DNA of 64,000 nt from Massalongia carnosa (GCA_965645245.1 OZ287073.1:1860001-1924000), one strand, 5' to 3'. Shown: positions 4,417-41,499, counted from the stretch's first letter. Numbers and translations are program-made. Notes: generated by a model from the sequence alone, not told the origin.

Positions 4417-5571
4417 ATGAACACACGAGGACGAAGCGGCCAGAATTCGGCCAATCCCACGTCCAATCAGGGTGATGACCTACTGGACTACGATACGCTG
4501 GAACAAACACCACCAAACCAGCTAATCGACGAGATTAGAGCCATGCAGGCCAATTTGACCGAACAGACAGCAGCCATGCAGGCCCAGGCCACCTTGTTGA
4601 CTCAGCAAAGTACCCGTCTCGCTGCCAATGAAAGGGAATTAGAACGACTGCACGAGGAAAGAGAGTCTCGTCGTCCTCGCTCCATGGAACGATCTGTCAG
4701 GTATAACCTCAAAGCTAAGTCGCCCGACCCGTATTATGGCAAGGACCATAAGACCTTGTTCGAATTCACCAGACAATGCGAGGCTGTCTTTAACACTAGT
4801 GGCATGCCTGAAACGGAACAAGATCGTCGTATAGCCTATGCAGGCAGCTACCTTCGAGACACCCCTAGCGACAATTGGCATGAGATACTATCACGAGGGG
4901 GTCATCTGAATCTTACCTGGAAGGAGTTCAAAAAGAACCTCATGAATCAACTAGGCTCTACAGAAGTTTTCAAAGATCGAACCTGGATGCAGTACCATCA
5001 TGCACAACAACGTCCCAATGATACTGTTCAATCCTTTGCGGCCTACTTACAACGCCTACGAACAATATTAGCCGATGCAGATCCGGAACATCCTATTACC
5101 GAAGAACAGATGGTCCAGAAGCTTCGTACGGGAGTCATACCAATAATTCGGAATTCCTTAGCACTAGGTCATCGACATCCCGCTACCATAGCGGAATTCA
5201 TCAGTGATGCACAACTAGCTGAGGGAGCGGCTGTTTTGCCATCATCAACAGGTAGAGGCTACTCCAAGCGGGAGCAAGGTGCCCCGGCTTCTAACGATCA
5301 GGGCCGCCGAGAACCATATCCAACTAATCATCGCGGAGGTCGAGGCGGAAGAGGTCATCGAGGTAGTCACCACGGAAGAGGCAATAGAGGCGGAAGAGGC
5401 CGAGGCGGCAGGAATGCGGCTCCGGCTGGTACTAGCGCGCCGTCGACCAATAGCAATGCCATTCCGCTAGGCACTGTGACCGAGATACAAGACAATAACA
5501 AAAATAGCTGCTATAATTGTGGATCCCTCGAACATTGGGTAAAAGACTGTCCCCATCCAAAAAAAGCATAG
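4417..5571 (+). CDS. Gypsy Gag
   Basis: Retrotransposon capsid-like region (PDPYYG, YAGSYLRD, Q-x4-TVQSF), RGG-rich tract, CCHC knuckle CYNCGSLEHWVKDC. Confidence 0.93.
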   Translation: MNTRGRSGQNSANPTSNQGDDLLDYDTLEQTPPNQLIDEIRAMQANLTEQTAAMQAQATLLTQQSTRLAANERELERLHEERESRRPRSMERSVRYNLKAKSPDPYYGKDHKTLFEFTRQCEAVFNTSGMPETEQDRRIAYAGSYLRDTPSDNWHEILSRGGHLNLTWKEFKKNLMNQLGSTEVFKDRTWMQYHHAQQRPNDTVQSFAAYLQRLRTILADADPEHPITEEQMVQKLRTGVIPIIRNSLALGHRHPATIAEFISDAQLAEGAAVLPSSTGRGYSKREQGAPASNDQGRREPYPTNHRGGRGGRGHRGSHHGRGNRGGRGRGGRNAAPAGTSAPSTNSNAIPLGTVTEIQDNNKNSCYNCGSLEHWVKDCPHPKKA

Positions 5572-12017: not shown

Positions 12018-13226
12018 CTATATTTTTATAGCATTGCAGGCTATAAGTGAAGATGTTTCACATGATGCAGGTGCATTGTTTCGACAGTCTAGTATTGAAT
12101 ATAATTCATAAAAATCAATTTCCTCATCAGCTACTGTCTGTTGAGGTAGGTAATAGTATGTGTGGGAAGGATTGATTGTTCTATCTAGGTGGCTGTCTAC
12201 TATGTTTATATAGCTAGATAGATGAGAGATGAATAAGATAGAGAGCAGGCACAGCGGCAGGGCAGGTTTGCCTTGAATCTCCCTGCCGTACCACCTCATT
12301 AGCTAGCCGTGTGCGGATCACTTGAGACGTTATTCCCAAGCCGTTGTGTTACCGTCTGGCACGGCACATAGGATGGCTGTCTCATCTAACACTGTCGTCC
12401 GTATCATCCTCCTCGTCCTCCTCGTCCTCCTCGTCCTCCAGATTGTCCTCCTCCTCCCCCTCCCCCTCCTCCTCCTCGTCTAGGTCCCTCCTTCTCCTCT
12501 CCCTCCTCCTCGTCATTCAAAGCCTTTTGTGTAGTCCTAGTAGTAAGCAGACGAACATTGAAGCTTGACCAGAAATTCTTTGACAGAGATTGACCGGAGG
12601 AACGTGATTCTGATGGAGGAGGAGGAACAATTATAGGTTCAGAATCGTGCTCGGATGATTGCTGCTTCAATTGGCTAGCAAATTTGCTGACATCGCGAGC
12701 CAAATGTATGTCGATGCCAGGTTCGATTCTCATTTTCTCTCATTTCTCCTCATAAGTAGTATCTTTTCACTGCTGAATGGTTTGTAAATCAGAGTGAACA
12801 AAATAGGCTCGGTCTCAGGCTCAGGCTCAGGTTTAGGAGCACTAGATAGCTTAGAAAGACAAGGAAAAGGCGCACTATTGCGAGTCGGACGAACATTCCT
12901 TGGCTCGGGGAGGAGGAGACGAGGAGGAGGTAAAGGCGAAGCCGAAGGAGAAGCTAGAAGAGATGATGAAGGTGAACGTGATGGAAGATCAGGAATACGG
13001 GTAGGAGAGGAGGTTCTATAGTCGGGTTCAGAGTGTTTAAACCTGATGATGATGATCTAGGAGGATTGATTCTAAGCCTTTGTTTGAATGGAGGTGTTGA
13101 GTTCCTAGGCAATTCAGTAGTAGATGCCCGTTTTCTGGGTTGTTTGAAGGGCTGTTTGGGGGGCTGTTTGGGGGGCTGTTTGGGGGGCTGTTTTGGAGGC
13201 TGTTTAGGAGGCTGTTTTCGAGGCAT
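12018..13226 (-). pseudogene. Pro/Ser/Glu-rich ORF of unknown function inside the Tc1 TIRs, frameshifted and split by a solo LTR
   Basis: ORF pieces 12954-13226 (PPKQ repeats), 12404-12733 and 12018-12138 on the minus strand, convergent with the transposase. Confidence 0.45.
12139..12391. repeat. Solo LTR (family A), TSD CTGTC
   Basis: TGTTG...TAACA, CTGTC on both sides, near-identical copy at 16501-17107. Confidence 0.9.
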
Positions 13227-16500: not shown

Positions 16501-17107
16501 TGTTGAGTTAAATAGGTAGGTAATAGTATGTGTGGGAAGGATTGATTATTCTATCTAGGTGGCTATCCTTTGGATTCTGTCCAACATTCGCCACCTATGT
16601 TGTTGCCTACACTAATGCCTATGCTAGTGATATCTATCCTGATGCTTACACTGATGACGTTTATCCTGATGCCTAAATGAAGGTAGCAATGTTGCTGGCT
16701 AAATAGGCAACATCAAGGAATCTAGGCATCAATAATGAGATTCTGGGGTCAGATATCATTATAAATAGGGCCTAGAATTCCTATGTAGATAGATGCTCTT
16801 TATCAGATTTGAATATCAGACTAGTAAACTATCATCTAGAATTCAGTCTTTTCACTTATCTTCCTAAGCCAAATACCCCTATCCTTTGATATCAGTCCCC
16901 TTCCAAAGCTATCTACTATGTTTATATAGCTAGATAGATGAGAGATGAATAAGATAGAGAGCAGGCACAGCGGCAGGGCAGGTTTGCCTTGAATCTCCCT
17001 GCCGTACCACCTCATTAGCTAGCCGTGTGCGGATCACTTGAGACGTTATTCCCAAGCCGTTATGTTGCCGTCTGGCACGGCACATAGGATGGCTGTCTCA
17101 TCTAACA
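16501..17107. repeat. Solo LTR (family A), TSD TGATA, interrupted by a family C solo LTR
   Basis: Matches 12139-12391 once 16568-16913 is removed; TGATA at 16496-16500 and 17108-17112. Confidence 0.9.
16568..16908 (+). repeat. Solo LTR (family C, CTTTGGA...TCCAAAG termini), TSD CTATC
   Basis: 341 bp, reverse complement of the LTRs at 23506-23846 and 30700-31040; CTATC at 16563-16567 and 16909-16913. Confidence 0.93.
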
Positions 17108-19302: not shown

Positions 19303-22300
19303 TTATCCAAAATGATCCGGTATGGGCCTACTCTCAATCCCTGCCGCCTCGTCAACTTGCCCGTTTGCTTGATAAGCACCGGCGAGCGCATGCTGCGAAG
19401 CAAGCCGATCAGGATGATCTTCGACCAGCTTTTTACTAACCTTGACGACCTGCTCGAGCAGCTCGACGGCTTCATCAACTTGCCCATTTGCTTGATAAGC
19501 ACTGGCGAGCGCATGCTGCGAAGCAAGTCGGGACGGATGATCTTCGGCCAGCTTTTCTTTAACCTTGACAACGTGCTCGAGCAGCTCGACGGCTTCGTCA
19601 ACTTGCCCGTTTGCTTGATAAGCACCGGCTAGCTCATGCTGCGAAGCAAGTCGGTCAGGATGATCTTCGGCCAGCTTTTCTTCCACCTTGACGACATGCT
19701 CGAGCAGCTCGATGGCTTCATCAACTTGCCCGTTTGCTTTATAAGCACCGGCGAGCGCATGCTGCGAAGCAAGTCGGGACGGATGATCTTCGGCCAGCTT
19801 TTCTTCCAACTTGACGACGTGCTCGAGCAGCTCGACGGCTTCATCAACTTGCCCGTTTGCTTCATAAGCACCGGCGAGCTCATGCTGCGAAGCAAGCCTA
19901 GAGGAATTGTCTTCGGCCGATGTTCGAGATCGACACTCGACAATGTTTCTGAAAACATTAACCGCCTCTCCATGTTTCTCCTGTTGCAATGATACTCGTC
20001 CAGTAAAAATTTTGATTTGTAGTGCTACTTCCTGATCGGCTCTATATTTACTTTGCAGCCTCAAGTGGATGCGTTGAACAAGAAAAGCAAGCGAGCTCTC
20101 ATTCATGGTATAGAGAACGTACGCAAGTTGGAAAAGTATTGGAGCAGCTTCGATATCGGACATGCTCTCTGTGTATTCTTCGATTTCGTGGTTCACACAG
20201 GCTCGCACGTGAGGTAGGAGAAAGATAAAAAAAGGACAATAGGAGTACCATCCATGACATGATAGCGCAACGATAGTCGCGGCTGACTGCCACGCTCTAG
20301 ATCGACTTTGATTGTCTTGCCGCTCTTTAGCCCATGCATGCACCAGAGAATGCGCGGTAATAGTGATAGAATCGTCATTCTCGTGCACGGTGATGATCGA
20401 CAAAGATTCCAAGACTGTACAAGCTTTGCGCCATCGCAAGCGGTCTTGAAGGCTAGACCATCCCTGCTGAGCATATTCCGGCAGCCTCGCGACGTGACGC
20501 ACGGATAAAGATAAGACTTCGTCGTCATTACTTGTCCCCGTCTCCTTGAGCTCGGAGGCATATTCAGAAGCTTTCCGAAATATTGTCTCCGAAATTCTAC
20601 TGTTATGCATGAACGCAAGAGTATGAAGAAAGTTCAAAGCATTCAAATTCTCTGACAATTTAGAGTTCTGAAGATATTCTGCGGAAACCTCGAATGTCGT
20701 ATACACATTGCGGTACACTGACAGGTTTTGCTTTGAGTGAAACTTCAGAAGCTGCCCTCTTTGCTGCTGAAAGATGATCGGATACTGCTCGAGAGTTACA
20801 CAACTTTTGCCTGATAAACGCGCCTGCTTGAATAACTGCAAGCGTATGTGATTCAAGGATTCTGACAACGGCCATAGCAGCTTTCTCTTTTTCCTTCCAC
20901 CGACTCTCTGTTGTACAGCTAGCCCGGAGTAGGAGTTCCCGGGCAAGCTCAGGCTCGAGACCACTCAGCATTTCATGTCCCACGGTGTTGTATGTAGCGC
21001 ATTCTGGATTGCGTGTAGTGAGCAAGATGTCGCCTCTCCTACTGGGTGGCATATATTCGGAGTAGTCAATTTCTAGATTATCAGCATTGTCGAGGATCAG
21101 AAGCCACCGTTGACTACTGCAGGCTAGCCATGACTTCACATTTTCAAGGGTCGATTCAGTTACACCGCACCGTCGCCCTATCTCGATATATCCCTGCTCA
21201 GCCGTGGTGGTGGTCCTAACATCAAGCCAGAAAACCCCCCAGTACCTAGCTTGTCAGCAGGATATCGGCAAGGCGTTTAATTTCACTTACTCGTCTCGAT
21301 GATCTTCGGCAAACTTCAGACAGACTTCACTCTTGCCTGTACCACCAATACCGATGATGACGAAAAGTCTTTGTTGTTTCGCAGGCTTCGAGACATCAAA
21401 TGAAAGCACTTGAGCAAGGCGCTCCGCAATCTCTCCTCGTCCAGTATAGACACGGCTGGCGGAACGAGGCACCATCCATTGGCTGGCCGTTTTATAATCT
21501 GTGTACATTATATGGAGCTGTTAGGTGGCCACTGGTCTTGTAGTAAATCGAAGGTCTGCGTTTATAGCGGACAAGGGGGCTCAATAGTTATGAGATTACT
21601 GACCGGTGGAGTCTGACCACGCTGTTGTTTTGGGGTCTTGTAATGTGGGTCTCGGTTAGATTTGAAGCACGGTTAGCGGCGAGAGGACTGACTAAAGACT
21701 GCATTGTAGAAGTTTCCTTGGACCACTTGGCTGGTCCAAGCATGACTGTCACCAAACTGATTCGAGACCTGCTCGGCCATCGTACCCGACGTCAGCCGTT
21801 TGCGGTCACCCATCTCGGTCCTTATGCCGGTCGAAGTATCTCCTCGCTGATCTATGACTTTATTCACCGCTGACAAAAACAGGAAGATCAGCTTTTGAGT
21901 ATCTAAAAAACGAATTCAAGGCGAAGGAATCCTGAGCTCTCGACAACACCCACTAAAAGTAGTTGCGACGTCTTAAGTAAAATCACCGGAGGATATGAAC
22001 AAAGACTCGAGCCTGACCTGATTGTCCATCATTCCCCAATGCTCTGCGGACTGACTTTTCCCAGCGCTGAAGTTCACCTAGAATGGCGTTGTATCCGTGA
22101 TCTTCTCGGTTTGAGAACTTTGTCATGTCCTATGACGATTAGCAAATAGAACAACCGATGACATCACCCGAATTACCATGTGATTTGCGTGAATGCCATA
22201 ACAGCTATAACCCCTAATCTCTGCGGAATGTAAAGGCACAATCTAGACGAATTAGGATCAACGTCTAGTGTGATTCATTGACAATCATACTTCTCCAACC

Positions 22301-23172
22301 CCTATAACACCAAGTTCTTCATAGAAACATGTGATTGAGATCTCAGACCCTTCATCCTTCCTTAGCCTGAGGATGTTGTGAAATTCATTTCCCACCATGC
22401 GAAGCATTTCGGATCCTGGCTTCAATACTCCTACGATGTCTGAGTTTGAGCGTTTGAGGAGATTGATCATTCGTGTCCCGAAGCTTGCCCATGATGCTAA
22501 ATCAGACCCACAATGCGGAACTCCCAGAAAGACTATCCCAGCCGTGCAGCGCTCGATCTGATGAAGGAACTTATCCGCGGTATTCCTCGAATAGCCGAGA
22601 GCGTGCTCAATAATAAATCCACCAAGACTGTGAGCAATAAATAGAATCTTTCTGACTTCTGAATTCGTTCTCTCTCGCTTTCGCACAAGATCGCCAACCA
22701 TATTCGCGGCATGATTGCTCAGTCGACTGTTTGATGCTGGGTTCCAGAAATTGACGATATCTGCGTCATAGCCAAAGCTCAAAATGCGTGCATCCGGCAA
22801 GTCTTGTTTCAGAAGTTCGCTCGGCCAATGCATCCTTGTGCCCTTGTCCTTATGAAGCCAGGTGTTGTACGCATCGCCCGTCAACCCGTGCACGAACACG
22901 ATATCGACACTCGCCTCCACGCCACCATCGTACAGCACTTTGACGCCATAATTCTGGCCTTCTCCGATGGGTGCTGGAGAAGCTTGTATGTTTGTAGCAG
23001 TCGATGTCGGACCGATGATCGTCTGGGATAGTTGGACGGCTAGGTCTTGCGATTCGGCGGCTTGTGAGGAGGATCCGCAGGGCTGTTCAGGTATCGGCGG
23101 GGGAGGCGTCGGCAGTGATGATTGCGACCTTGATTCTCTTGAGCGGAAAAGGCCTTTAAGCTTAAACGGCAT
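19303..23172 (-). pseudogene. Fungal NLR: SesB-like alpha/beta hydrolase - linker - NB-ARC - TPR; multi-exon, one frameshift near 20797
   Basis: DIVFVHGLTG, ARILSFGYDA, AHSLGG, GIVFLGVPH, HANH; GT-AG introns join it in frame to Walker A GIGGTGKS and Walker B WLLILDNAD; 42-aa TPR repeats at about 19340-19900; frame changes at RQKLC/TLEQY. Confidence 0.85.
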
Positions 23173-26076
23173 CTCAATTCATGATTTTGCGATCTTGTAG
23201 TTGGAAAAGTGTGCGATCCATCTAAGAAAGGAATTCGCAGCTTTGTACTGCACCTTGGCGCAAGCAAGAAGAGGTAATACTCGTCTGATTGGCTAGACAA
23301 ATCGATCAATAGCGCATCTCAGTCGTATCGCTTCATTTAGTCAACTAATCGTCGGCTAGTCTCTCGCTTACCTCGTGCCGACTCGACGCGTTCGCCTCTA
23401 GTCGGGGAAAGCTAAGTTCGTCTTTTCGCAATCTTATTTCCATTTCATCAACACGACGCCTTTGACTACATCAATTATTTCATTATTGATCATCATCATC
23501 ATCATCTTTGGAAGGGGACTGATATCAAAGGATAGGGGTATTTGACTTAGGAAGATAAGTGAAAAGACTGAATTCTAGATGATAGTTTACTAGTCTGATA
23601 TTCAAATCTGATAAAGAGCATCTATCTACATAGGAATTCTAGGCCCTATTTATAATGATATCTGACCCCAGAATCTCATTATTGATGCCTAGATTCCTTT
23701 ATGTTGCCTATTTAGCCAGTAACATTGCTACCTTCATTTAGGCATCAGGATAAACGTCATCAGTGTAAGCATCAGGATAGATATCACTAGCACAGGCATT
23801 AGTGTAGGCAACAACATAGGTGGCGAATGTTGGACAGAATCCAAAGCTCCCCTTCTGGAGACATATGAAGCCGTACTGATTACCTATTTAGGCTTATTTA
23901 GGCCCAGTTGTTCGATGAACTTCTGATGTTTGGCCTTCTTCAGAGGTTTAGTGAGGCCGTCGGCCACCATATCCTCAGTAAATATATAATCCAACTCAAT
24001 CTCCCCATGATCCACTAATTCCCTTACCTTATGGTATTGGATATCGATGTTTTTTGACTTGGGGTGATATATCGGATTTGTCGCTAGTTTCATGGCCGAT
24101 TGATTATCTGCTTTGATATTTATCGGTCCGTTGACACCATACCCGATGCTTTTCAGGGTTTTAGCTAAATATACTGCTTCCTTTCCAGCGTTGCATTGGC
24201 CGATATACTCCGCTTCGGTAGTGGAGGTGGCGACTATGCTTTGTCTTTTGGTTGCCCAGCTGATAGGTCCGTTATGGAGCATGAATATATAGCCTGAGGT
24301 GGATCTCCTAGTATCTAGGCAGTCCCCATATAAGGAGTCGGTATATCCGATTAACTCCCCTGATTGTTCGAGGTTCGGAGCAAATTTTATGCCCAGATCT
24401 CGAGTCCCTGCTAAATATCTGACGATCCTTTTGGCGGCGTCGTCATGATTCGGTGCAGGGTTGCTGGCGTATCTGCTGCACTTATTGACGGAGTATGCTA
24501 TGTCTGGTCTGGTCATAATTGCCAACCAGAGCAATGATCCGAGTAGTTGCTGATAGGCCTTAACCTCTATTTTTGAGGCTTGATGATCTTCCTTTCGAAG
24601 ATCTGCATTCATGGGTATCGTGCATGAGTGGCAATTGGCCATACCCATTGCCTCTAAGAGTCTTTCCACATATTCCTTTTAGTTGATGTAGATAGTCCTA
24701 TTAGGTCGATCCCTTATGATATGCATGCCTAAATACCAGTTGACTGGTCCCAGGTCTTTTATTCTAAATCGATCGGATAGTTCCTTCTTTAGGTTCGCGA
24801 TGTCGTCTTTGCTGGGTCCGATTAATAGTAAGTCGTCAACATATATCGCAACTATCATCCTTTCTTTGACGAATAATGAGTAATCCTCATTTACCCGTTT
24901 GTAACCTCTCTGTCTCAGATACATGGTTAAGCATTCGTACCACTCTCTCGGGGATTGTTTGAGTCCATAGAGTGCTCGATTTAATTTGCAAGCTTGATGT
25001 GGGACTTCATACCCGTGTAGTTGCTCTACCCATATTTCTTCGGTGAGGGTTGCTTCTAGGAATGTGGTGATGATATCGACTTGATTGGCTTCTAAATCAT
25101 ATTTAGCAGCTATAGCAAATAGGGCTTTCCAGATCATAGCTTTTATGACACTGGAAAAGGTCTCGTCATATTCAATTCCTTCCAATTGACGGAATCCTTT
25201 GACAACCCATCTGGCTTTAAATCTGGTGATCTCCCCATAAGGTCTGAGTTTGATTTTGAAAACCTATCTACCTGGTTGTATGTGAGCATTTTTCGGAGGT
25301 TTCTTGAGAGCCCAGGTATTATTTTCCTTGTGAGACTCTATCTCCTCGTCCATAGCTTTCTGATATTCATCGGAATATTCAGACTTCAAGGCTTCTTCGT
25401 AGGATTGCGGTTCTCGGTGGTCTGTCGCCGTCGCTTTGAGAGCGCGGAGTGCAAATCCTCTCTTGTAGGGGTCGCTGATTTTGGCATAGTCCTGACGTTC
25501 AGTGCGTCTAGAGGTTCTTCTTAATGTCGACTCAGATGCAGGTGCAATTGGTAAATTTGCCCTGATATATTCAGTGATTAGTTGAGTAGATGCCATGTCG
25601 TTATCTTTGGTTCCCTCTTCTAGTCCTGATTCAGTTAGGTTGCTCGCTTCCTCGATCACTTCGGCAGCTGTGATTGGTTCAGGAGTTTTCTCCCCGGGAG
25701 CGCTAACTATTGCGGTACTAGTGTCCGCAGATTCGTCATCCGTATTAGAATATAAAAAGATTCCTAATTCTGATTCCTCATCTTTTAGATTTTCTTTCGA
25801 CCAACCTGCATCGGTCTCGTCCCATAGAATATTTGCAGATATTATTACCTTCTTTGCTGAAGGGTCCCATAGGCGAAATTGGTTCTGGCCGCTGATTCCT
25901 AAAAATCTGCACTTGATAGAGCGGTCGTCCAATTTCTTCTTTGATGGGTCTATATTGTAATGATAGGCTGTGCATCCGAATATTCTTACATTGCTGACAT
26001 CGGGTTTTTTACCCGTCCAGACCTCGTACGGAGTCTTATCCTTTAGTCGCTTGGTGGGGCTTCGGTTTTTGAGATA

Positions 26077-28666
26077 ATCGTCGGCTCGCTTAGTGGGATC
26101 CGACTCGGAGGCCGTCGCCTCCTAGTCGTGGAAAGCGATTTGCATCCGGAAAGCGATTTGCATCCATTCAAACTGAAATTTTGACCATTTTTCACCTTTT
26201 ACCCTCAACCACATTGATCAATCATTACGTAATATCGTAAAAAGCTTGAAAGCATCGTCGTCGTCATCGTTGTCATCAAAATTATCCCCCCCCCACAATT
26301 TCCGATCCTTTATTATCGCATTTGCAACTTTCGAAAAGACGTTTTCAACCTCCCTTCGTACCATGGAAAATAATGCCTCAATCTTGGTTTCCACTCTCAG
26401 CCCCATGGAAAGATTGGAAGAAGCGAAGTAATTTCTGATTGATCATCCCGAAGAAAGCAAGGCTGCTGCGTCAAAAATCTACAATGTCAACGTTAAAATG
26501 TTGACGTCTTTTGTTCGTCGTCATCCGAAAGAAGGACAGAAAAAAGAAGGGAAAAAAAAGGGGGGAGAAAATCAGATACTGAAAGAGCATGAAGCTAGGG
26601 CTTTAGATGGATTCATTAAATCCTTATTGATACATGGAATTCCACCTACGCATCACATGGCTTTTAATGCAATTGTAAGTCTGAGAAAGGCTCATAAATT
26701 AAAAGCTCCATCAAGACGATGGTTTCGGTCTTGGTGGAAACGTAGCAATTTACACAAGATTAAGACCAAACCATTAACAATTATTCGCTTTGAAGCCGCT
26801 GATGAATCAGATGTGATCAAATGGTTTGATGGCTACAAAGAGGTATTGAGAGAATTGAAAATCAGAAGAAGACGAAACATTCTAAACTTTGATGAAGCTG
26901 GTTTTCGAATTGGATGCATGAAGGGTCAGGAAATCTACGTTCCTATGGAAATCAAGCAATTCTACGCCGTCAGCCCGGAGAATCGCAGATCTGCGACGGT
27001 CATTGAGACGATCAATGCTGCTGGCGACTATCCCCCTCCCCCCATGATCATCATACAGGGTCAGGAAATCATGGCGACGTGGTTTTCGGAGGATTTGCCG
27101 GTGAGCACGCGTATTGTGCCTTCCGACAGTGGTTTCACATCTGATAAGATAGCAATTGAATATTTGAAGCATCTCATTCAAAATTCTAATACAGGATCTA
27201 ATGTAGATTGGAAATTGCTCCTGATGGATAATCATGGCAGTCACGTTACTCCTGAATTTGTACTTCTGGCCAATGAAAATCACATTCGTCCATACCCACT
27301 AATTCCACATTTGACTCATTGCATGCAGCCATTGGATGTCGGCGTATTTCAGCCCTATAAACACTGGCATCAACAGGCTATTGAGGAGAATGTTGCATCG
27401 TCATTTGTCGAGTATTCCCTGACTCGGTTTCTTTAGGATTTGATCAAAATTAGAAACCAGTCATTCAAAGCTTCTACAATCCGACATGCATTTGAAAATT
27501 CGAGAATGTGGCCGGTCAATCCAGAAGCATGCATTCGTCAGCTGAAACAATTCATTCTCGACAATTCTAGTCTGAACAATTCTGATCTGACTGATCAGCC
27601 CTCACTTCCTCTACCTCGTCAAATTCAACCTAGGGATATAGTCGACAGAGAACATGGATTGCGTCAATGGGGGTCAAAAATTCAAGAATCTATGCAATGG
27701 AGTGATCCCGCCCGAGCAGGGGAATTTGATTCTTTTATAGCTGGTACGAAAGAGATCATTTCGAAGTCTATACTCGGAGAAGTGGAGCTTGAAATGTATC
27801 AGCAGCAAAGAACGAATTAGCTAAACAGCAGACGAATATCTCGTAAAAGATTGAGACCTGAAATCGGAAGATTGGGAATAACCGCTGAAGATGCGAAGCA
27901 AGCTATAGCCATGAAGCTACAAAAAGATCAGGAAATTGAGAAGAAGAAGGAGAATAATAACTTCATGAAGTTGTGGAGAACGGAAAGAGACGAAATTCAT
28001 GTCAAAGGGGTGACTGCTCGAAAAGCAGAAAGGGATCGAGTCAAACGACTAAAAGAGATGCAGAAAGGGCTCGGTGCCATCTCAGTTGAGATGTATGAGG
28101 AGATTCCTGACCCCGAGGCATTATGGAAAGCGACGAATGAGGTGTGGATAGCTGAGGAAGCGAAAAAAGAAGCCAGAACGAATCCATCTGCATCTGCTCG
28201 TGCCAATGTTGAAGAAGACGTCACATTTATTGTAGATGAGACTGAAGCTAGAAATGGAGGCATTTCGAACATTTCGAACATTCCGGACATTCCAGAAGAA
28301 GAAGCATGGCTACGAGATGATTTTGTGTCTTTCGATCCAGGTTTCGAATCGGGAGATGCTTCGAATTATGAGGGGGATGCGGGGTATACGGGGTATCAGG
28401 AAGATCAGAATAATCAGGGTGGTCAGGGTGGTCAAGGGGGTCAGGGGGGTCAGAGGGATGATTTTAATGACGGCTTTGATGATGACGATGCCTTTCGAGC
28501 TTTGTATGAAATTAAAATCAATAAATCAATGTGGTTGAGGGTAAAAGGTGAAAAATGGTCAAAATTTCAGTTTGAATGGATGCAAATCGCTTTCCGGATG
28601 CAAATCGCTTTCCCCGACTAGGAGGCGACGGCCTCCGAGTCGGATCCCACTAAGCGAGCCGACGAT
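26077..28666 (+). mobile_element. pogo/Fot1-like DNA transposon (inner) inserted in the copia integrase
   Basis: About 140-bp TIRs (26077-26218 and 28525-28666), TA flanks. Confidence 0.94.
26363..28520 (+). pseudogene. pogo DDE transposase with in-frame stops at 26429, 27434 and 27818
   Basis: NFDEAGF, LLMDNHGSH, HLTHCMQPLDVGVF catalytic motifs; the ORF pieces are all in one frame. Confidence 0.9.
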
Positions 28667-31171
28667 TAACACACATACCCGATTGCCTCCCCCCAGAATC
28701 CTCGAGTCATTTTTCCATGGTGAAGGATAGCCCTTACTCTTTCGAACAGTGTTCTAAAGTTTCGTTCGGCTACACCATTTTGATTGGGATTATGTGGGGC
28801 GGTAGGATTCCATTCAATGCCTATTTTCTTTAATAATTCTTGGGTGTGATTAGAGGAATATTCCCCTCCATTGTCACTTCGAAGAATTTGTACAGGCGTT
28901 TGTCGATTTTCCATGAAGTTTATAAACTCTTTTAGGGCCTTTCGGCCTCGGACTTCTTCTTTAAAAGATAAATAGTCATGAAGTTGGAATAATCGTCTAT
29001 CAGAGACATGACATAGCGGGCACCGCCGAGGGTTTGAGGCAACTTCCCCCCACCCGCTATATCGGTGTAGATGATCTCCCCTATCTTGGTGGCCCTATCC
29101 CTTGGGATTCTCACCAGATTTCGGGTTTGTTTCCCTATCGCACACGATTCACATATCGCTGGATGGGATTCGGTGGATTCCAATTTGGTTGCATTTGATA
29201 CGTCGATTCCGGTGGCCATGTCCGGTAATCTTTTGACGTCGTCGATGCTTAGATGGGCTAGTCGTTTATGCCAATTGGTCCACGAAACACTACTATCAGA
29301 CATCTTCAGAGTTTTCGGTTCATAGAGGTCAATAGTGTAGGTTGCACCTTGTTGATGTCTGGTGCCGGTGAGGGTCACCTGTCCTGACTTTGAGCACTCG
29401 ACTTTACCATTTTTTATAGTAAATTCGAACCCTTTCTGTTCTGCAGTTCCTATGCTAAAAAGATTGTATTCCGCATCGGGGCAGTAATGAACGTTCTGCA
29501 TAATGAGTTGTTTCTGAATACCTTCAACATTACATTGTAAGATAACCGTTCCAGTTCCTCGGATCTCCAGGGGTGAATTCTGAATTCCCATCACCGATTT
29601 CTTGACGGATTTGAGCGTTGAAAAGAGGTTCTTATCATAAGAGATATGCACATCACTTCCTGAATCCATCCACCAATTGACGTCCTTAGCTGCAGTCTTC
29701 AGACTCTTGGTGGTAATTGCCATTTTGAGTGTGGCTATCATGGTAGGTTTAAACTCTGACGATTTGTTGTCACCGGATTCGTCTTCCTTTACCAGACCTT
29801 CTTTGCCTTTTGCAGGCTTCCAACTCTTTGGCCTGAGATGAGGATTGAGGTAATAGCATTTATCCTTGCCGTGTCCAGGGTTTCCGCATCCACCGCAAGG
29901 TTTCTTTGACTTATTTCCTTCTCTTTTTGGTTTCTTTTGAGTTAGAACCTTTGCTTCTTGTTCCTGATCCTTGATTCTTTCCTCGTATTCCACTAGTACT
30001 TTGATCATGTCGTCTAGCGAAAGGGGTTTACCGACTTTCTCGGCTTGTTGTTCTTGAGGAATTATGTATGTTTCTAGATCTGAATTGAGACCATGAGTGA
30101 AGAAGTTTTTTAGCATCCAATCATCAAATTTCTTCCCGGTGTTGTCACAGTCCTGTCCAGCCTTTTTGATGTAGGCACCATATTCCTGAACGGATTTATG
30201 ATTGGACTGGGATGCTCTGATCAACTGTCTCTGGGCAGTTCTGAGGACGGTGGACTCAGGATGGTCGAACTCCATTAGTTTCTTCCATATGTCGTTTGCT
30301 GAGTCGAGTTTTTCTACTTCCACTAGGGCTTCTTTGGAGCAGGTTATTTTGATCCGGCCACAGGCCTTCTCATTCTTGTCCTCCCATTTAGTTACCTTTT
30401 TGTCGAAGGAATCAAGTTGTTTACGATACCACTTGATATCCTCTGGTGAGGATCCTTGATCGGGTTCTTTCGGTGAAGCGATTGGTTTCGTCTCTTTGCC
30501 GTTGACCACTTTCAGGATTCCGTCCACCGATAAAATATGTTCCATGGCCGTTTTCCATCCCTTATAGTTCTGGGGGCCTGATAAGGGCTTGACTTCGTAG
30601 GTAAGTTGTCCTATTTTGGCCGACATGATTGTTTGATGAATCTATGAGGTTTTTTTAGGAAAAATACCGGGCAGTGTGCACTAACCCGGGCTCATAACCC
30701 TTTGGAAGGGGACTGATATCAAAGGATAGGGGTATTTGGCTTAGGAAGATAAGTGAAAAGACTGAATTCTAGATGATAGTTTACTAGTCTGATATTCAAA
30801 TCTGATAAAGAGCATCTATCTACATAGGAATTCTAGGCCCTATTTATAATGATATCTGACCCCAGAATCTCATTATTGATGCCTAGATTCCTTTATGTTG
30901 CCTATTTAGCCAGCAACATTGCTACCTTCATTTAGGCATCAGGATAAACGTCATCAGTGTAAGCATCAGGATAGATATCACTAGCACAGGCATTAGTGTA
31001 GGCAACAACATAGGTGGCGAATGCTGGACAGAATCCAAAGATCATTATCATTATCATATCATTATTATCATTATTATCATCATCATGAATTGTAATGATA
31101 CTGTCACGCGTCTGAATGATGCTAAGCAGTTTCTAATAGAAAATCCACTTGAAAGCAAGATATGCGCTGCT

Positions 31172-31660
31172 TGTCATGGAATTACCTCGCACCCTCCCAC
31201 GATTCCTGATCGGGTTAGTATTTAACAGGCTCTCTTGCCGTGAAACCTGCCCTGCATGTTGAATAGAACTGTGGCCTGTTATTCCAAACTATCCTGAAAC
31301 CTCACCCCATGTGTTTAGACGTTCTTCCGCTGCCTTCAGTGCACTCCCAAAACTCTTATATCCCGAATCCAATCTCAACGTCTCCACTATCCAAGCCTAC
31401 GACTGGGATTGCCCAGCAGAGAGAGATTGCTTCGGCATGGAGAAAGACGGAACAGGTCAAAGCGATCATGGTTAGGAAATTAGAACAGGAACAGAGATGA
31501 GGGCAAGTCAAGAATTGGGGGGTTGGAAGCCATGGCTATAAAACCTATGTGGTTTCTCAGTGTTTGGATCTATTCGTCGGACGTCTTGTATACTATCCCT
31601 AGACCTAGCTTTCTAATAGTAACTCTTGTATATCTCCCTATCTGGACCTTGTCCGTGACA
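31172..31660. repeat. Solo LTR, TSD CTGCT
   Basis: TGTCATGGA...TCCGTGACA with CTGCT on both sides; interrupts the transposase coding sequence. Confidence 0.88.
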
Positions 31661-33129
31661 CTGCTCGCATATTTGACATTCCTCGTACCACTTTACAAAG
31701 TTCACTAACTCAAAACAGCGCGTCGAATGAAGTCGAGAAGAGAGGAGGACATAATAAGACATTGGAGAAGCATCAGATCAACGCAATACATGAGTTCATT
31801 CGCTCGTTACTTATATATAGTATTCAACCGACGCATGAACTGATATTCAACGCGATCAAGAGTCTGAAGCGAAGTCAGAAGGCTGATTATAAAGGTCCTA
31901 CTAAGCGATGGTTTAGAACATGGTGGAAATCCAACCATTTACATAAGATTAAGACTAAACCGCTAGCAGTCGTTCGCAATACGGCAGGACAAGTGAAAGA
32001 CGTTGAAGCATGGTTCGCTGATTATCGGGTGATTCTTCGAGAGCTGAATATCAAGAATAAACGAAATATCATCAATTTTGATGAGGCTGGTTTTCGAGTT
32101 GGCTGCATGAAGGGACATGAAATTTTGGTTCCAACAGATGTAATGGAGTATTATTCTATTAGTCCTGAGAATAGAAAATCTATCACCATTTTCGAGAACA
32201 TAAACGCCACCGGTGATTATCCGCCACCTCCTTTACTTGTCATACATGGTCATGATATGATGAGCAATTGGTTTGCTGACGAACTGCCTAAAGGAACTCG
32301 AATTGTTTCGTCAGAAAATGGATTCACATCGGATAAAATAGCGGTTGCATATCTGCAACATTACATTGAAAATTCTGATGCAGGATCTGAGAGTGATTGG
32401 AAGTTAATGCTCATTGATAATCACGGTAGTCATGTTACTCCTGAATTCATCAAGCTTGCCAATGAAAACCTGATTCGTCCTTATCCTTTGATACCACACT
32501 TGACGCATTTTATGCAACCGCTTGATGTAGGAGTGTTTCAACCTTATTAACATTGGCATGATGTGGCCATTCAAGATGCGATTGCGGAGTTCAATGTAGA
32601 GTATACAATAACTCCATTTTGTCAAGATCTCACCAAAATACGAGATAACACGTTCAAGAAATCCACTATTCAATCTGCCTTTGAAAAATCTGGAATGTGG
32701 CCTATTAATGAGAAGAAATACATTGAACAGCTAAAGAAGTTTGTACCTTCCCAAAGTGAGAATAATTCTTCTTCTTTTCCAACATTATCTCTCCCAAAAT
32801 TGCCACGAGTTCAACCTAAAACGTTTGATGATGTTGAAAGAGGATTACTTGAATGGCTACCCAAAATTCGCGATAATACACAATGGAGTGATCCAGTCCG
32901 GGAACAGGAGTTAGAGGAATTCGTTAGTAATACGAAGGAAATTATTGCCAAATCGACGCTTACAAAATTCGAACTGTCACTCCATCATGAGCGAAGAAGC
33001 AATGAATTACTACAGAGAGCAACTTCTCGCAAGCGATTAAGACCTAATTACTCGACAGACGGAGGATTAGGACTCACGAAAGAGGATGCGCAACGAGCAA
33101 TTGTTGAAAGACAGCAAAAAGATGAGCAG

Positions 33130-33339
33130 TGTTGAATGCCGGTTGCGATTATAGTTGTAATAGCTTGTTAGGCTCACTGCCACATGGACCACGTGGATAG
33201 CGGGTAGTCTAATCTTCTCCCGGAAGGCTTTAGGCTTAGCGTGCTTTGTTTGCCTTTGGTGAAAAGTCTGCTAGGCTTTTCCTCTTACATAGCTATATAG
33301 TCAATGCGATTACCTGCAACAAGAGTCTTCCTTTTAACT
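33130..33339. repeat. Solo LTR-like insertion, TSD AGCAG
   Basis: Starts TGTTGAA, ends TTAACT, AGCAG on both sides; transposase sequence resumes after it. Confidence 0.75.
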
Positions 33340-34104: not shown

Positions 34105-34528
34105 TGTCAAGGACTGGGCAGGGGATTGAACTAATGTTCCTAGGAATTGGATTGGGTGATCATGATGTCTTTATTAATAAAGCTATAGCTAGGTGATGGA
34201 TTGCTATAAAAGACGTCGGACAAGGAGTCAACTATCTAATTAACTTGTCCTTCCTTTTATATTTGTCTCGAACCCCTTTGCATAAAGATTTGATCAGTGT
34301 TCATCTCCCCCTATTAGGAGACGTACGGCACGAAGGTTTGACGAGGTTTTTGACGATAAAAGGTGGAGATGAGGTTCTCCTGTCGTTGGTACGCTTTGAT
34401 AGTAATGGTACAGCTTTGACCTGAAGCCGTTGAGAGGGGTCTAAACTCGATTTAGTTAATGAGATTCTGACTAAGCTGAATAGAGGAACGGGAGCTTAGT
34501 CAGATTCATCTGCGGGATTGATTCTGGA
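34105..34528 (+). repeat. 424-bp LTR-like segment, left arm of an inverted duplication flanking the AcademH-like element
   Basis: Reverse complement of 41076-41499 with roughly a dozen substitutions; starts TGTCAAGG. Confidence 0.9.
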
Positions 34529-35118
34529 TTGCCTCAGTACCTCAGACGTGCGTGGCTCTATGAGCCGGCTAAGCCCCTCCGGGTTAGCCTATTTTCGCTA
34601 AGCCCCTTCGGGTTAGCGGCCCTTTAGCTGACTACGCATGCTACGGGCGGCACGTCTGAGCGCAAAACTCTGTATTTTTGTCAGATCCGGCTTATTTTGG
34701 TGCGCGCTCATACAAATTTTTGGCTTAACCTCAAAAATCATCAAGAATCAAGTTGACGGCGGAATCAACAACGCGCAACGACATTTCATAAATTATGTAA
34801 TAATAGAAATGATGCTTTGATATACATTCTATCGATTAATCAATATTTTAATTCCGTATCGATGCAAAATTGAGTCGCAATATCGATCTCGCGACGAGGA
34901 CTCGACTTTGACTCGAAATTTCGACACCACCACAGCAGACTCAACGGGTCACTAGCTCCAGTTTTTCATTGTCGGCGCTTCTGATCATTAATCTGATCCT
35001 CCGAGCGTTGTTTTCGAAAGCCTAAAATCGTTGAATGTGATGAACTTGCTTGATGTGCGTTTTGCGGGCTAAGAATCCAACTCGCGAATCGTCGAATATC
35101 GCTCGCGAACACATCGAA

Positions 35119-37288
35119 ATGGACGATCCTATAGCGTCGATAACTCGCGAGCAGGTGACGACCGTGATTTTAAGTAAATTCGGCTTTTATCCAAAGAATG
35201 AGCAAGTTGACGCTATCATGACTTTAGCACAAGATCAAAAGGATCTGATATTTATCGCCAAGACTGGATTTGGAAAGAGTATTATCTTTCAAGCTATGCC
35301 ATTAATGTTCTCTTGTCTTAAGATCGCTTTAATTATCATGCCTCTCAAGACCTTAGAAGCTCAACAGTGCAAGAAATTGAGCGTTATCGAGGGATGCAAG
35401 CCTTTCGTGTTGGACGGTGATAGTAATAATTCTTCTAATTTAAAGTTAATTCGTGAAAACAATTATACGCATGGTGTGTATTCAAATTATGATTGAGATA
35501 AATATAAAAACTTACTCGTTAATATGAATAGTTTTTACTAGCCCAGAGATAGCGACGTCAAAGCTGTTTAATCAGGAGGTTCTGAGGCATCCAAGTTTCT
35601 TCTTGAATTTATGTCTTTTAGCTCTTGATGAGATGCATCTTGTATCCGAATGGCGAGATTTCCGGCCCGAATACTTCAATCTCGGTGTGCTTCGTACACG
35701 ATTACCAGATGGTATTCCTTTTCTGGGTGCGTCTGCAACGCTGGATCCAAGAACCCTAGAGAGCGTTAAAGATCGCTATGGCTTTGATAACGAAAGTACT
35801 GTTATTCAAACAGCGCTTGATCGTCCAGAGATATACATACAGACAAGCAGTCTACAGCGGCCTATGAACAGCATGATCGATCTTCAACATCTTTTACCAA
35901 CACGGGCTGAGAGTCCTTTTGATATTCCGAAAACGATTATCTTCATGGATTCAATTTCATCTATCAAAAAGGCGTGTGCGCTAATGAAAGTATGGATGAA
36001 TCAATTGTCCTATCCAATTGAGGCTGCTAGTTGGGTCGCGCCTTTCTTTTCCGACATGGCCACCCAAGACAAAGAAAGGATTGCGGCTCGCTTCGAAATG
36101 CCCTCGAATCAATGTAAATTTCCTCGAATCCTGATCGCAACGGATGCATACGGGCTTGGTATTGATAATCCAGACGTTATGAGAGTTACGCAATGGCTGC
36201 TACCCTCGTCAATGGCGAAGCTATACCAACGTTTAGGTCGTGCTTTGCGTTGCGGTCGAGGACAGGCGCATTTTACTCTTTTGCATCCTTCTTGGTGCAT
36301 GGGTCCAAGAAGCGGATCAAAAATGGACGAACAGGACGGATATGACGCGGGAATCGAGATTGAATCCAAGGCCAGTAAACGCCGCATCAATCAAAAGGAT
36401 GCTGATCGGCGACGAGATATGCCACCGGGTCTTTGGGAGATAATCAATGTGCCTTCAGATGGTTGCGTTCGAGGTATTGGCTTGAATTTCTTCAATGATA
36501 AGGTGTATCCAACGTCGGCCTATGTTAAGCCGCAACCTTGCTGTTCAATTTGCGATCCAAGTTTTCAGACATCAACAGCCGCCAATGAGATGTTAAATAG
36601 AACGGCCGAGCGTGACTCGTCTAGGCGGCCTTGGTTCACCCTTAAACTTCGAGAATGGAGGGAGGCCAAGGCGCAGGAAAAGTTCCCAAATTCACATATG
36701 CGATACTTCCCATCATTGATAATGCCCGATGAGGTACTGAATTCTTTGACCACTTGGGCGGATCAGATTGTGGACGAGCCCACCATGCGGCGATGGATTG
36801 GTAACACATGGACTGGTATTAGGCCCTACGGCGCCGAGCTTTTAGAAATTTTAAAGCGGGGTCAACCAATGAGATTAGACGAGGGAGACATGTTCGAGGA
36901 ATGGAAACGACACAACGACATAAAGAGAAAACGATTACCCAGCCTAACATGCAACTCCGCCAGTATTGAATTTGAGGAACGGAGGAAAAACTGGATGATC
37001 AAACAAGGATATATGTCGAGAAAGGTTTTTAAAAAGCGAAATGCGGTCAAGAAGAAAGTCTCGAAGGAAAGCGAGAGCACGGAGCCATCGGGCGAGAATC
37101 CTGCGCCTAATCACAATATCTCCGATGCGGCGCTCGTTGTTGACAATGTTGATGCTCTTAAATCATCGATGAAGGCATCAAAGACCAAAAAAGCGCCTCG
37201 AGATCCTATGGAAGCGTTGTCGCTGAATGTACCCATGGCCCTTCCTCCGACACGATCTAGACAAGAAAGAAAGTGCCCCGTCCGCTAG
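35119..37288 (+). CDS. RecQ-like superfamily 2 helicase, two exons (35119-35473 and 35532-37288)
   Basis: Walker A AKTGFGKS, VFTSPE, DEMH, SAT, ATDAYGLGID, QRLGRALR, Cys cluster CVR...CCSICD, HRDC-like LREWRE region. Confidence 0.9.
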
Positions 37289-37353
37289 CTCTGACTCTGT
37301 AAAGCCGCGCGGCGCGGATTTACATGACTAGGCTATCTCGTGGTATCGATGAT

Positions 37354-40300
37354 TTAATCAAAAAACATACCGCCGGATATCTCGAGACGGGCCATTGAAA
37401 TGACAGGGCTGTCGGGGACCTGCTTTGTTTCATTGACAAAATCGGGCTCGGCTTCATACTTACCCTCAAGGTCGTCTGTTGAAATTTCTTTTGAAATTTC
37501 TTCGGAAAGATACTGCTGATTGTATTTTAATACATTTTCTCCAAGTTTCTTCAATCCCTCAACATAAAGATTAGCTGTTGGATTAGTTGAAAATCGATCA
37601 TAGCTTCTTTTACCTAGTTCGGCTATGCTGAGAGCTAGTGCGTCGTTAATCGAGACAGCTCCCGCTTTGATTTCGGCACCGCATGGATCTCTCGGACGGC
37701 ATAGATGTCTCAGCACCATAAGGATGTCTCAGCACGGCATAGAGATCTTAGCACCGCATCGATCCTTCGGACGACAGTTAGGTTTCGGATTTGTGTATGC
37801 CTTGCTATGGGCCGCGTTGATGGGGCATACTGGGATGGTAGAGTAGGACAAGGAGAATAGGAAGAAGATATATAAAGAGGAGGTCCCAGACGGTATCCCT
37901 CATCATCTCACATCTCAAGACAATCAAAAAGCATAGCATTTTGATAGCACTGTTTGCAACGTTTTCTTTCCCACCCACCCACTCCAGTTCTTCTGTCGCT
38001 TAGATAGAGGGAGTCTGTTCACAGCCCAAGGCCTGCGAGAGGGTCTTACATTAGTAGACAGCAAGGCCCTTATCGAGTCCCCCTCTCGAGGCCGGGGGCT
38101 GTGAGCAATAGCCCAAACATACTTAGTAGCAATATAACGAGATTGACACGAACTAGAGAGTGATTTATGCGCTAGTGCCGTAGCCATGCCCCACACATCC
38201 TCTGCGGCCGATTTTGCTGGATGCCTTGAAGAGTTGACTCTTCCAAAGTAAAACTCAACGATTTCTTTGAGCTTCATAAGATATGGACCGTTGAGTGCCC
38301 AGTTCTCGAGCAAGGTGTCACTATACTTTGAAAAATAAGATCGCTCGTGCTGGAACGTCTTGAGGTTATTGTTTAGTATCTCTAAAAGCCGATCAGTCTC
38401 AAAACTCGACTCTTCGTCACCGCGTAAATTGACAAGACTATTCATTAAAATACTTTCCTGTAGCCTTATGGTCGCTGCGGAAGAATCAATCGCATGAAGG
38501 GTGTATAGAAGAGCTTGCGCATATTTCGGGGTGCCAGCTACGCTTGCCTGAAAGATCACCGTTGCGTGGCGCAATGCGTGACGAAGTAGTCCAATATCCG
38601 CATATTTGATTGCGTATCGAAGTGTTAGATACGATTCAACGTGATCACAGAAGTTCTGATGATTCTGAAATTGTTGATCAAGCGTTGGAGGAAGCATATC
38701 TATTGACGTTGAGGGTAATTCCGCGTGAAGTTTGCGAGATATCCTGCCCAACATATTCATCCAGGTGCCATCCTGCCCGCAAGTCTGCGCTGTGAGCCAC
38801 GAAATAGTTGCTTCGATTCGCTGCGGAGCATATCCATCCTTTCGTAAAAACCTAATCCACGTCCCAACGATTCTAGCTTGATAGCTCTGAATGATCAGAT
38901 CCTCTAAGGCCTGGAAATCGTTCGGCTGCACGACACGAGCGCGGCCCTACCGATCGGCGGCATATTGAAGAGTCGAAGGATCAACCGGCTGGGCCTCTCC
39001 CCAATGTATTTTATGAATAAGCTGCAGCATGTTAAAGCGAAGATGCCATAACCCTAATCCCGGTAAAATCCAGTCGAACCGATCGAAAGATTGCTCCGAT
39101 ATCCCACGACGTAATTCCTTGACAGATTGCATTCTCGACCATGTCTTGAGGTCACCATAGATAAGCCGAATGACGCTCGCAAACGTCGAGTCATCCTCCT
39201 TGAACTTGAACTGTCGCACAAATATATCCTCCAATATTTGAATATTATTAGATGTTGTGCTCTCATCCTTCATGACTGGTTTGATAGGAATGTAATTGGT
39301 CTTGTATTTTTTCATCTTATTCAGCACGGGCATTGCAGTCGACCAAGGAAGTTGAACGTCGCCGATCTCTGGGCCATAAAGCGCTCGAAATCGCTGACTC
39401 TAGATGATGAAGACGAATCTAGGTACGCGGTGCATTAGCGATTGAGCGCGGTATATACACCTCGTCCTGTATTGAACTCACCTGCATCTCGAGATCACCA
39501 GTCTCCAGCTTTCGCGCAATTCTTTCAGCTGATAAAAGATGCGTGGCGGGGCGCCACATATCCTGCCTCAAAGCGCCGGCATCGAATCCTTGCCCCTGGA
39601 AAATTAGAGCGGTAGTGATTGATCTGACGTCTCTATTATCCCCCGTGCGCTCTCCTCGTTTACCTTCTGCGAAGTCAAAGTTATCGTATGTCAAGATCAT
39701 GTTTGAGCCTTGTCCTAGCATCTGAACCTTTCGTTCGGCCTCCTTAATCAAGGACAACATGCGCCGCTGCAGGGTAGTATATGACATCGTCAGGTCAAAA
39801 TGACAGAGTGTATCTAGAACTCGCCGCCTCGCCCCACCTTGATAAATATAAAGGCCTAAGACGGACTGAATATTGGTCGCCTTATTTGGTCGCAATTTGT
39901 GACAAAGCATTGCCAATATAACGGTGTGCCGGCCGCTGGGAGAATCCAACGTCACATCGAGAGGTTCCTGCGGGCGAGCCTCGCGACAAACACTATCAAT
40001 TAGCTCAAGCCATCGTGGCGCCAACTGCTTGGCGGCAGATGCAGCAAGTTTAATAGCCTCCAAGGTCCCAAACTCGACTGTCGCAGAGGGCGGCTGGAAA
40101 GGGCCAAAGGCTGCGTGATCTGCCAAAGCTTTGATTTCTTCACGAAGCACATCCGCGGCCCAAACCCATCCTCTCTCGCGAAGGATAGTGGATATTCTAC
40201 CAGGCCCAATGAGGCTTGAAAAGTCTTCTTGCCGCACAATATCGACATAGACAAAATCGAAGAGCTGGCCTTGCGCCTTTCGCATACTATGACGGGCTCG

Positions 40301-40576
40301 ATTCTTACAAAGTGTTGATAAAAAATCTTTTACCGACCAATTTAGAGAGCTCAGAAATTTAAGCACCTCAACCAGCTTGTCGTAATCTGATATGCGCCGG
40401 CGGTGGCGTTTCGCGCCTCCATTTTTTTCAGGTAAGGCAGGAGGGGAGGAGGAAGAGGGTGAGCTATCATTACTGCCTGACGGCGATGGGTGGGGCCGCT
40501 TGAGCGCACCGGCGGGAGTCAAGGGACTTGTCCGTAGGTCGGTAAGTGGCGAGGAGGGGCCCCCGACAAGAGCCAT
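37354..40576 (-). pseudogene. Academ-type DDE transposase (DUF6589-like), disrupted
   Basis: Motifs YDNFD, GDLKT, GLWHL, ETDRLLE; intron about 39419-39481, frameshift near 39390, TAG at 38947, insertion about 37625-38148. Confidence 0.78.
37625..38148 (+). repeat. LTR-like insertion in the 3' part of the transposase gene; left boundary uncertain
   Basis: Short tandem repeats, TATATAAAG box, ends TGACA; interrupts protein-like sequence; no TSD found. Confidence 0.5.
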
Positions 40577-41075
40577 GGCTTTCGTCAGATAGCTTCAATC
40601 TAGATAAATCATACAATACCATTGATTGGCCGTCGTTATTCATATCATCATGATCTTTGTAACTCAATGTAATCGCGCCACATGAAAATAATCAGTTCAT
40701 CAACCTCAAAATTGAGCGAAAGCGAACAATTTATCACTTAATCGACTTTCACATCGCTTTTCTTAGCCTGACAGTAGTTATAACACATGATTATCGAGTC
40801 ATCCATCTTGAGAGGTGCGTTTTTGGTATAAAATACAGTCTCTGGTAAACTAATACGACCCTAATCATTGTATTAAATCCATAAAAGGAATGGTTGCACT
40901 GCTAAAATTTTTATTACGCGGATCTGGCCGTAATTTTGAGTTTTGCGCTCAGACGTGCTATCGCACTGATGTTAGTCAGCAGCGACGCTAACCCGAAGGG
41001 GCTTAGCGAAAATAGGCTAACCCGGAGGGGCTTAGCCGGCTCATTGAGCCACGCACGTCTGAGGTACTGAGGCAA

Positions 41076-41499
41076 TCCAGAATCAATCCCGCAGATGAAT
41101 CTGACTAAGCTCCCGTTCCTCTATTCAGCTTAGTCAGTATCTCATTAACTAAATCGAGTTTAGACCCCTCTCAACGGCTTCAGGTCAAAGCTGTACCATC
41201 ATCATCAAAGCGTACCAACGACAGGAGAACCTCATCCCCACCTTTTATCGTCAAACACCTCGTCAAACCTTCGTGCCGTACGTCTCCTAATAGGGGGAGA
41301 TGAACACTGATCGAATCTTCATGCAAAGGGGTTCGAGACAAATATAAAAGGAAGTACAAGTTAATTAGATAGTTGACTCCTTGTCCGACGTCTTGTATAG
41401 CAATCCATCACCTAGCTATAGCCTTATTAATAAAGACATCGTGATCACCCAATCCAATTCCTATGAACATTAGTTCAATCCCCTGCCCAGTCCTTGACA
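41076..41499 (-). repeat. 424-bp LTR-like segment, right arm of the inverted duplication
   Basis: Reverse complement of 34105-34528; ends CCTTGACA. Confidence 0.9.

Follow-up and report, generated by a model that had tools for sequence, protein, structure and literature searches.

A Ty1/copia retrotransposon whose long terminal repeats (LTRs) begin with CT and end with AG lies on the minus strand, from 31040 to 23506, of a 64,000-nucleotide stretch of the Massalongia carnosa genome (GCA_965645245.1 OZ287073.1:1860001-1924000), hereafter the window. The 5′ LTR (30700..31040) and the 3′ LTR (23506..23846), both on the minus strand, are 341 bp long and identical at 338 of 341 positions, and a solo LTR of the same family, family 1, occupies 16568..16908 on the plus strand, again with 341 bp. 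The three copies differ pairwise at 3-4 positions and, as a preliminary description of this DNA had proposed, all are bounded by CTTTGGA…TCCAAAG, a perfect inverted repeat of exactly 7 nt. The same description had the primer binding site (PBS) and the polypurine tract (PPT) abutting the LTRs, which is borne out: the PBS GGTTATGAGCCCGG (30686..30699, minus strand), which complements the anticodon arm of the initiator tRNA-Met and is of the half-tRNA priming type, directly follows the 5′ LTR, and the PPT AGAAGGGGAG (23847..23856, minus strand) directly precedes the 3′ LTR, each with a spacer of 0 nt.

Both target duplications that had been pointed out are present. The full element is flanked by ATCAT (23501..23505 and 31041..31045, plus strand) and the solo LTR by CTATC (16563-16567 and 16909-16913); the former sits inside an (ATC)n microsatellite and is weak evidence taken alone. 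The solo LTR itself lies within a canonical solo LTR with TG…CA ends (16501-17107), and an uninterrupted copy of this host LTR (12139..12391, plus strand) shows the empty site at 12193-12197. The empty site had been placed near 12194 and indeed has neither CTT nor AAG, although it reads CTGTC, one letter different from the duplication CTATC.

The order of Pfam domains (PF14223, PF22936, PF13976, PF00665, PF25597, PF07727) is the Copia order of Gag, protease, integrase, reverse transcriptase (RT) and RNase H, the last identified by motifs only. An open frame at 28932..30641 (minus strand; PF14223, PF22936, PF13976) encodes Gag, protease, the GAG-pre-integrase domain and the first part of the integrase core with the first catalytic D, and terminates at a frameshift; the remaining core, with the second D and the E, lies in another frame at 28669..28960 (minus strand, start approximate). 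The integrase region is then split by a 2.6-kb Pogo/Fot1-like DNA transposon, foreign to the retrotransposon (26077..28666, plus strand; ∼150-nt inverted repeats, TA duplication, DDE_1), beyond which 23884..26074 (minus strand) carries the integrase C-terminal SH3-like domain, RT (RVT_2) and the RNase H region, with two in-frame stops within RT/RNase H. Domain order, direct LTRs, PBS, PPT, 5-bp duplication and a D,D(35)E core all place the element in Ty1/copia; its ends depart from the canonical 5′-TG…CA-3′, which is typical of Copia and not defining. The earlier statement that the integrase keeps D,D,E is right for the residues, all present in the sequence, but the frameshift separating the first D from the second and the inserted transposon disrupt this copy. 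Its integrase is no longer functional, and what is said below about the joining of AG ends applies to the lineage.

We searched the 52-Mb genome (25 contigs) for further copies. Family 1 has 7 LTR matches genome-wide, 3 of them in the window; those outside include a solo LTR flanked by AAAAT duplications and another complete copy flanked by AATAT. A search with RT, in which the best 150 of 810 candidates were scored and 40 loci fetched, gave a second family (family 2), whose RT is ∼62% identical to that of family 1 and whose 233-bp LTRs have the ends CTTTG…CAAAG. The LTRs of the two families are otherwise unalignable, with a 9-nt match at the left end, the last 5 nt in common and a best E value of 0.39. 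Among the 50 family-2 LTR matches in the fetched loci, 48 of 49 right ends are AG and one is AT, while the left ends are CT in 43 of 48 cases, four of the remainder being one insertion with a one-base loss and the other TT. The genome search with the family-2 LTR scored the best 40 of 65 candidates, so its counts are lower bounds.

The boundaries were then tested at 22 distinct sites of both families, with repeated flanks counted once and three partnerless LTRs left out. An exact 5-bp duplication stands at the CT/AG boundary at 20 of the 22; the best alternative 5-bp register gives 4, and a control that paired the left flank of one site with the right flank of another gave 0 matches in 462. 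The duplications show no strong target consensus (19 tabulated). With 18 further sites having exact duplications, the caveats on ATCAT and on the empty site are lifted. The integrated copies have CT…AG ends and a stagger of 5 bp and, because the duplications stand at the CT/AG boundary, the joined strands end in G at both sides. The tabulation of copies, termini and duplications proposed in the preliminary description thus favours its reading, and TG…CA copies with duplications at other boundaries, the contrary outcome it had named, did not appear, the inner TG…CA register scoring 0 of 22.

That inner register deserves a word, since both families have TG at positions 4-5 and CA at −5/−4 and the true ends might be TG…CA 3 nt inside (CTT-TG…CA-AAG), the outer bases being target DNA or an unprocessed overhang. 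We consider this very improbable: a 4-, 5- or 6-bp duplication at that register is found at none of the 22 sites, the empty site lacks CTT and AAG, and a strand joined at CA should not be followed by AAG. The same CA recurs in the CAACA of canonical families and hence belongs to a conserved subterminal motif. Hidden TG…CA ends are refuted for the integrated copies. Single ends do mutate, as the AT right end and the TT left end of family 2 illustrate, and the termini could in principle reflect mutation after insertion, of the kind caused by repeat-induced point mutation, or an assembly error. The chance of this is negligible, and we reject it: the same ends recur at 20 unrelated sites on many contigs and in independent runs, and TG to CT is no C-to-T change.

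These other runs were examined as assembled contigs. In runs X10 and X11 contigs begin at exactly 23506 with foreign flanks, and the empty site is seen in X3 and X5. Runs containing the element include lichen and biocrust metagenomes, and none of those listed as containing it is an RNA run. Together with the fungal character of the host's genes and transposons, these sources make a lichen-associated ascomycete the likely host. Within the host genome, six family-2 loci (L040, L043, L045, L046, L229, L230) represent a single insertion with identical flanks, TGTTT appearing six times, and another single insertion recurs on contigs with ATATC four times (L044, L048-L050). Such repeated identical flanks indicate that the insertions were copied as passengers of larger elements or duplications.

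Comparison with canonical families carrying the same PBS locates the change. These families read GGGAG/TGTTG…CAACA/GGTTATGAGCCC (slashes at the LTR boundaries) and the CT…AG families GGGAG/CTTTG…CAAAG/GGTTATGAGCCC: CT/AG substitute for TG/CA in register, the outer two bases alone change, and the subterminal TTG/CAA is kept. More distant host families sharing the PBS end in TG…CA or TG…TA. Half-molecule tRNA priming is used by copia and Ty5, and here, as in the Hemivirus type, the PBS is exactly complementary to the anticodon arm encoded by two tRNA-Met genes of the host (L101, L102). This mode of priming is described in PMC6317226 (statements taken from cited papers hold for the parts of their text that were available). 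The terminal G would give one extra pair with the host tRNA and the A of AG would not pair. Copying of AG from the tRNA primer was therefore rejected, as G alone would pair.

Two sequence patterns found 389 PBS junctions in the host genome. Eighteen end in G (17 AAG and one ACG, the latter due to a single-base change within a TG…CA copy) and the other 371 do not; a hand count of the first 100 listed of these gave 66 CA, 26 TA, 6 CT, 1 TT and 1 AT. Two young host Copia families (L059-L062, L076) have TG…TA ends with 5-bp duplications, LTRs 99.5-100% identical and long open frames. A set of non-coding LTR elements of 1.4-1.5 kb with the same PBS (L251, L249, L253, L254; e.g., G000:C6:2411.7-2413.3 kb) ends in TG…CT, and L251 has the duplication TGGTC.

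In a tree of RT and RNase H (45 rows), family 1, family 2 and P0001, an uninterrupted database protein of 1392 amino acids (83% identical) known as protein only and so without LTR ends, form one clade (98/97). This clade stands next to a TG…GA/TA lineage (82/61) within a 22-row clade (100/99). The integrase tree (36 rows; supports are SH-aLRT only and the outgroup is not clean) places P0001 beside family 2 at 83, and the pair with the TG…GA lineage at 94. In this likely sister lineage, L119 has TG…GA ends and the duplication CAATT, and L115 has one LTR with TG…TA and the other with TG…GA, its flanks not matching. A metagenome Copia of the wider clade (L117:4117-4294) starts with CG after a purine tract and has its sole CCAAAG 178 nt on; judged from this sequence, which comes without a duplication as proof, its 3′ LTR is perhaps CG…AG. 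From the tree and the ends of the relatives, the TG left end and the 3′ A are therefore ancestral, loosening of right ends has recurred, and the complete CT…AG swap is the derived state of one subclade. A lineage of half-tRNA-Met-primed fungal Ty1/copia elements has replaced terminal TG/CA by CT/AG at both ends.

Outside the host genome, this lineage is represented by P0001 and the contigs of other runs. Among 78 metagenome loci listed in a scan with general Copia words, four fall in the wider clade by the RT tree and none is a CT…AG element. The PBS-junction pattern had 4 matches in viral contigs, none with an RT, and a protein scan of the viral contigs found no relative.

How such ends are made and joined can be outlined as follows. 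Reverse transcription would yield a blunt cDNA, 5′-CT…AG-3′, given that PBS and PPT abut the LTRs, and 3′ processing would not be needed, as in Ty1 (PMC8487063). The D,D(35)E integrase encoded by the element would then use the 3′-OH of a G at either end for joining, with a stagger of 5 bp. The claim that AG-3′ is joined at both termini draws support from the 20 of 22 duplications, from the empty site and from how the ends line up, in register, with those of TG…CA families that share the PBS. Less firmly, this integrase may derive from an ancestor with loosened end recognition (the relatives have TG…GA/TA, and a Phe lies near the catalytic Glu), the present enzyme may favour AG and still read the subterminal TTG/CAA, and a mutated right end may have been transferred to the left end by fold-back. 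A full family-1 copy bears on this last step (L038, G000:C16:955316-955636). Its 5′ LTR is a 321-bp near-palindrome in which inverted LTR positions 141-341 are joined near an internal hairpin to LTR positions about 216-341; its AATAT duplication is undamaged. Regardless of whether this structure predates or follows insertion, it illustrates a route by which an altered right end can reach the left.

An integrase that prefers AG, with ends kept by selection rather than drift, is the probable explanation, because both ends agree and are symmetric on otherwise unalignable LTRs. Symmetric ends that outlast the rest of the LTR would point to one protein acting at both ends and not to two unrelated RNase H cuts. 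The main alternative is an integrase indifferent to the last two bases and reading the subterminal TTG/CAA only, in which case CT…AG would have arisen once by drift and symmetrisation and been kept by constraints of reverse transcription, namely the RNase H cuts at PPT and primer and the extra base pair between terminal G and tRNA. Right ends are labile in this genome, as the junction counts attest, the relatives end in GA or TA, the terminal G adds one base pair to the duplex with the host tRNA, and the CT…AG integrases have no private residue. We nevertheless find this unlikely, as the identical dinucleotide stands at both ends in two families with unalignable LTRs, the A of AG is unpaired with the tRNA, and RNase H constraints need not be palindromic.

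The integrase was inspected at the residues expected to contact the terminal CA, as had been suggested, and no diagnostic residue emerged. Aligned to the Ty1 and prototype foamy virus (PFV) integrases, P0001 has the catalytic residues D527, D590 and E626; N620 aligns with PFV Gln215 (Gln146 of human immunodeficiency virus, HIV) and F629 with PFV Asn224 (HIV N155), so that the CT…AG lineage has Phe instead of the usual Asn three residues past the catalytic Glu. In Rous sarcoma virus, the residue equivalent to HIV Gln146 stacks against the G facing the penultimate C (PMC7955051). Of 228 proteins, 37 were unscored; among the 191 scored ones, 4 have Asn at the Gln146 equivalent. Both substitutions are offered as leads only, on the strength of these alignments.

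Several observations count against the proposed AG-preferring integrase and its derivation. The same Asn occurs in P0167, which groups with the sister lineage; Phe at the N155 equivalent is found in 23 of the 191 scored proteins, TG…GA relatives included, and host TG…CA families likewise lack Asn there. A column screen for residues private to the CT…AG families returned two unremarkable positions and no private residue. In the RT tree, support for the TG…GA lineage as sister is weak (82/61). Duplications fix the ends of just two independent families, both in one genome, and two sites lack a duplication (L057 and a pair on C11). One X5 contig departs from the LTR 5 nt before the CT end.

Another alternative is insertion in trans, by the integrase of an abundant TG…CA family or by a DNA transposase reading the short inverted repeat. 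Some 370 other PBS-bearing ends are present in the genome, every translated CT…AG copy carries some break, and the non-coding TG…CT element is evidence that unusual ends can be moved in trans in this genome. However, the ends track the elements' own RT/integrase clade, the uninterrupted relative P0001 exists, and 5-bp duplications, PBS and PPT are consistent with retrotransposition. A canonical helper integrase is further disfavoured because Ty1 integrase requires CA or A:T ends and rejects non-CA ends at physiological metal (PMC8487063). We regard insertion in trans as improbable.

The remainder of the window holds other repeats and genes. Tandem TPR arrays of 123- and 126-nt units, from fungal NLR-like genes, lie at 19306-20964, 22288-23178 and 48118-50430, one of them adjoining a DUF676 esterase-like frame. 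A second Pogo/Fot1-like DDE_1 transposon (31609-33135) lies just past the Copia element, and a 7.4-kb segment at 34105-41499, flanked by inverted repeats of 519 nt (97%) and holding DEAD/Helicase_C and DUF6589 frames, is possibly a large DNA transposon. A chromovirus (a Gypsy element bearing a chromodomain) whose gag and pol frames are long and open occupies 4345-9443, its LTR apparently starting with TA at 4256, and a non-ribosomal peptide synthetase fragment (PP-binding, condensation) lies among transposons at 56308-58353.

Among known elements, the Hemivirus type (Drosophila copia, yeast Ty5, plant Osser and Bryco) is similar in having Gag-PR-IN-RT-RH in ∼4.9 kb, short LTRs, a 5-bp duplication and a PBS for the tRNA-iMet anticodon arm, but has TG…CA where CT…AG stands here. 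The assignment of the clade to this type by name is provisional. Plant Copia elements such as Tos17 (TG…GA), AtRE1 (TA…TA) and TARE1 (TA…CA) likewise combine short LTRs with heritable non-canonical ends. In lotus and other plants TGCT, TGGA, TACA, TGTA, TGGT, TACT, TATA and TGTT are recorded, and the lotus Copia elements among them (TGCT/TGTA/TACT/TGGT/TGTT) have A or T as last base and at most two of the four bases altered (PMC9804982). The first T was invariant in a survey of 50 plant genomes (10.1101/137141), and Rosaceae Copia include TGTT and AACA ends, AACA altering one end only (PMC5659011). In contrast to these plant elements, here all four bases differ, the ends are palindromic and the 3′ base is G.

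Both ends also deviate from TG/CA in Drosophila errantiviruses (gypsy, ZAM, Idefix, Tirant, 297, 17.6), which have AGT…AnT ends, several of them perfect inverted repeats of 5-7 nt (PMC5408687). Those elements are Ty3/gypsy, have T as 3′ base and insert at sequence-specific targets, whereas ours is Copia with a 3′ G and no strong target consensus, and has neither a Ty3/gypsy RT, an integrase after RT nor AGT/AnT ends. The view in the preliminary description that exceptions usually change a single base or end is thus too narrow, as errantiviruses change both bases at both ends (PMC5408687); a fully swapped Copia with a 3′ G stays unusual. Like the element in the window, the fungal clades discussed next are Copia of filamentous ascomycetes. 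Donnart et al. 2017 distinguish GalEa/FunCo8, FunCo1 and others. GalEa (FunCo8) has TGT…CA ends and a hairpin in place of the PBS, and FunCo1 a tRNA-Lys PBS (PMC5445492), features that the window element does not share; the available text of that survey gives termini for GalEa only, and the CT…AG lineage may belong to another FunCo clade.

A CT…AG LTR or a terminal G was not found in the literature searched, which left Repbase-type libraries and most subscription papers outside and in which punctuation motifs search badly; in their available parts, PMC6913007, PMC8773270, PMC6875170, PMC3395085, PMC4522978, PMC2774666 and 10.64898/2026.02.14.705750 contain no such termini. Those matches for CTAG and for CAAAG that were read were a Helitron end and a tabulated duplication and not LTR ends. 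The chance that a CT…AG LTR family has already been described is appreciable, though well short of even.

The element belongs to a real, heritable, clade-level group of Copia with half-tRNA priming whose four terminal bases all depart from TG…CA. It is conceivable, though on balance somewhat doubtful, that this is an undescribed clade whose integrase has truly switched from CA-3′ to AG-3′, orthogonal to the host's canonical Copia ends, which number in the hundreds, by way of a relaxed ancestor and fold-back, and that terminal G may be wider (L117) and under-annotated in lichen and other fungi. The earlier warning that standard LTR finders miss the family applies to motif-constrained runs, since a motif-free LTRharvest run would report the pair (10.1101/137141); in this genome, 17 of 389 half-tRNA PBS junctions lie in families that TG/CA-constrained pipelines would drop or mis-trim. 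The terminal CA is among the most conserved features of integration, for reasons that are poorly understood (10.1101/137141, PMC5659011). Related integrases with TG…CA, TG…TA, TG…GA and CT…AG ends provide a series for finding the residues that read the last two bases, and the same series lets one ask whether specificity is switched, not merely relaxed.

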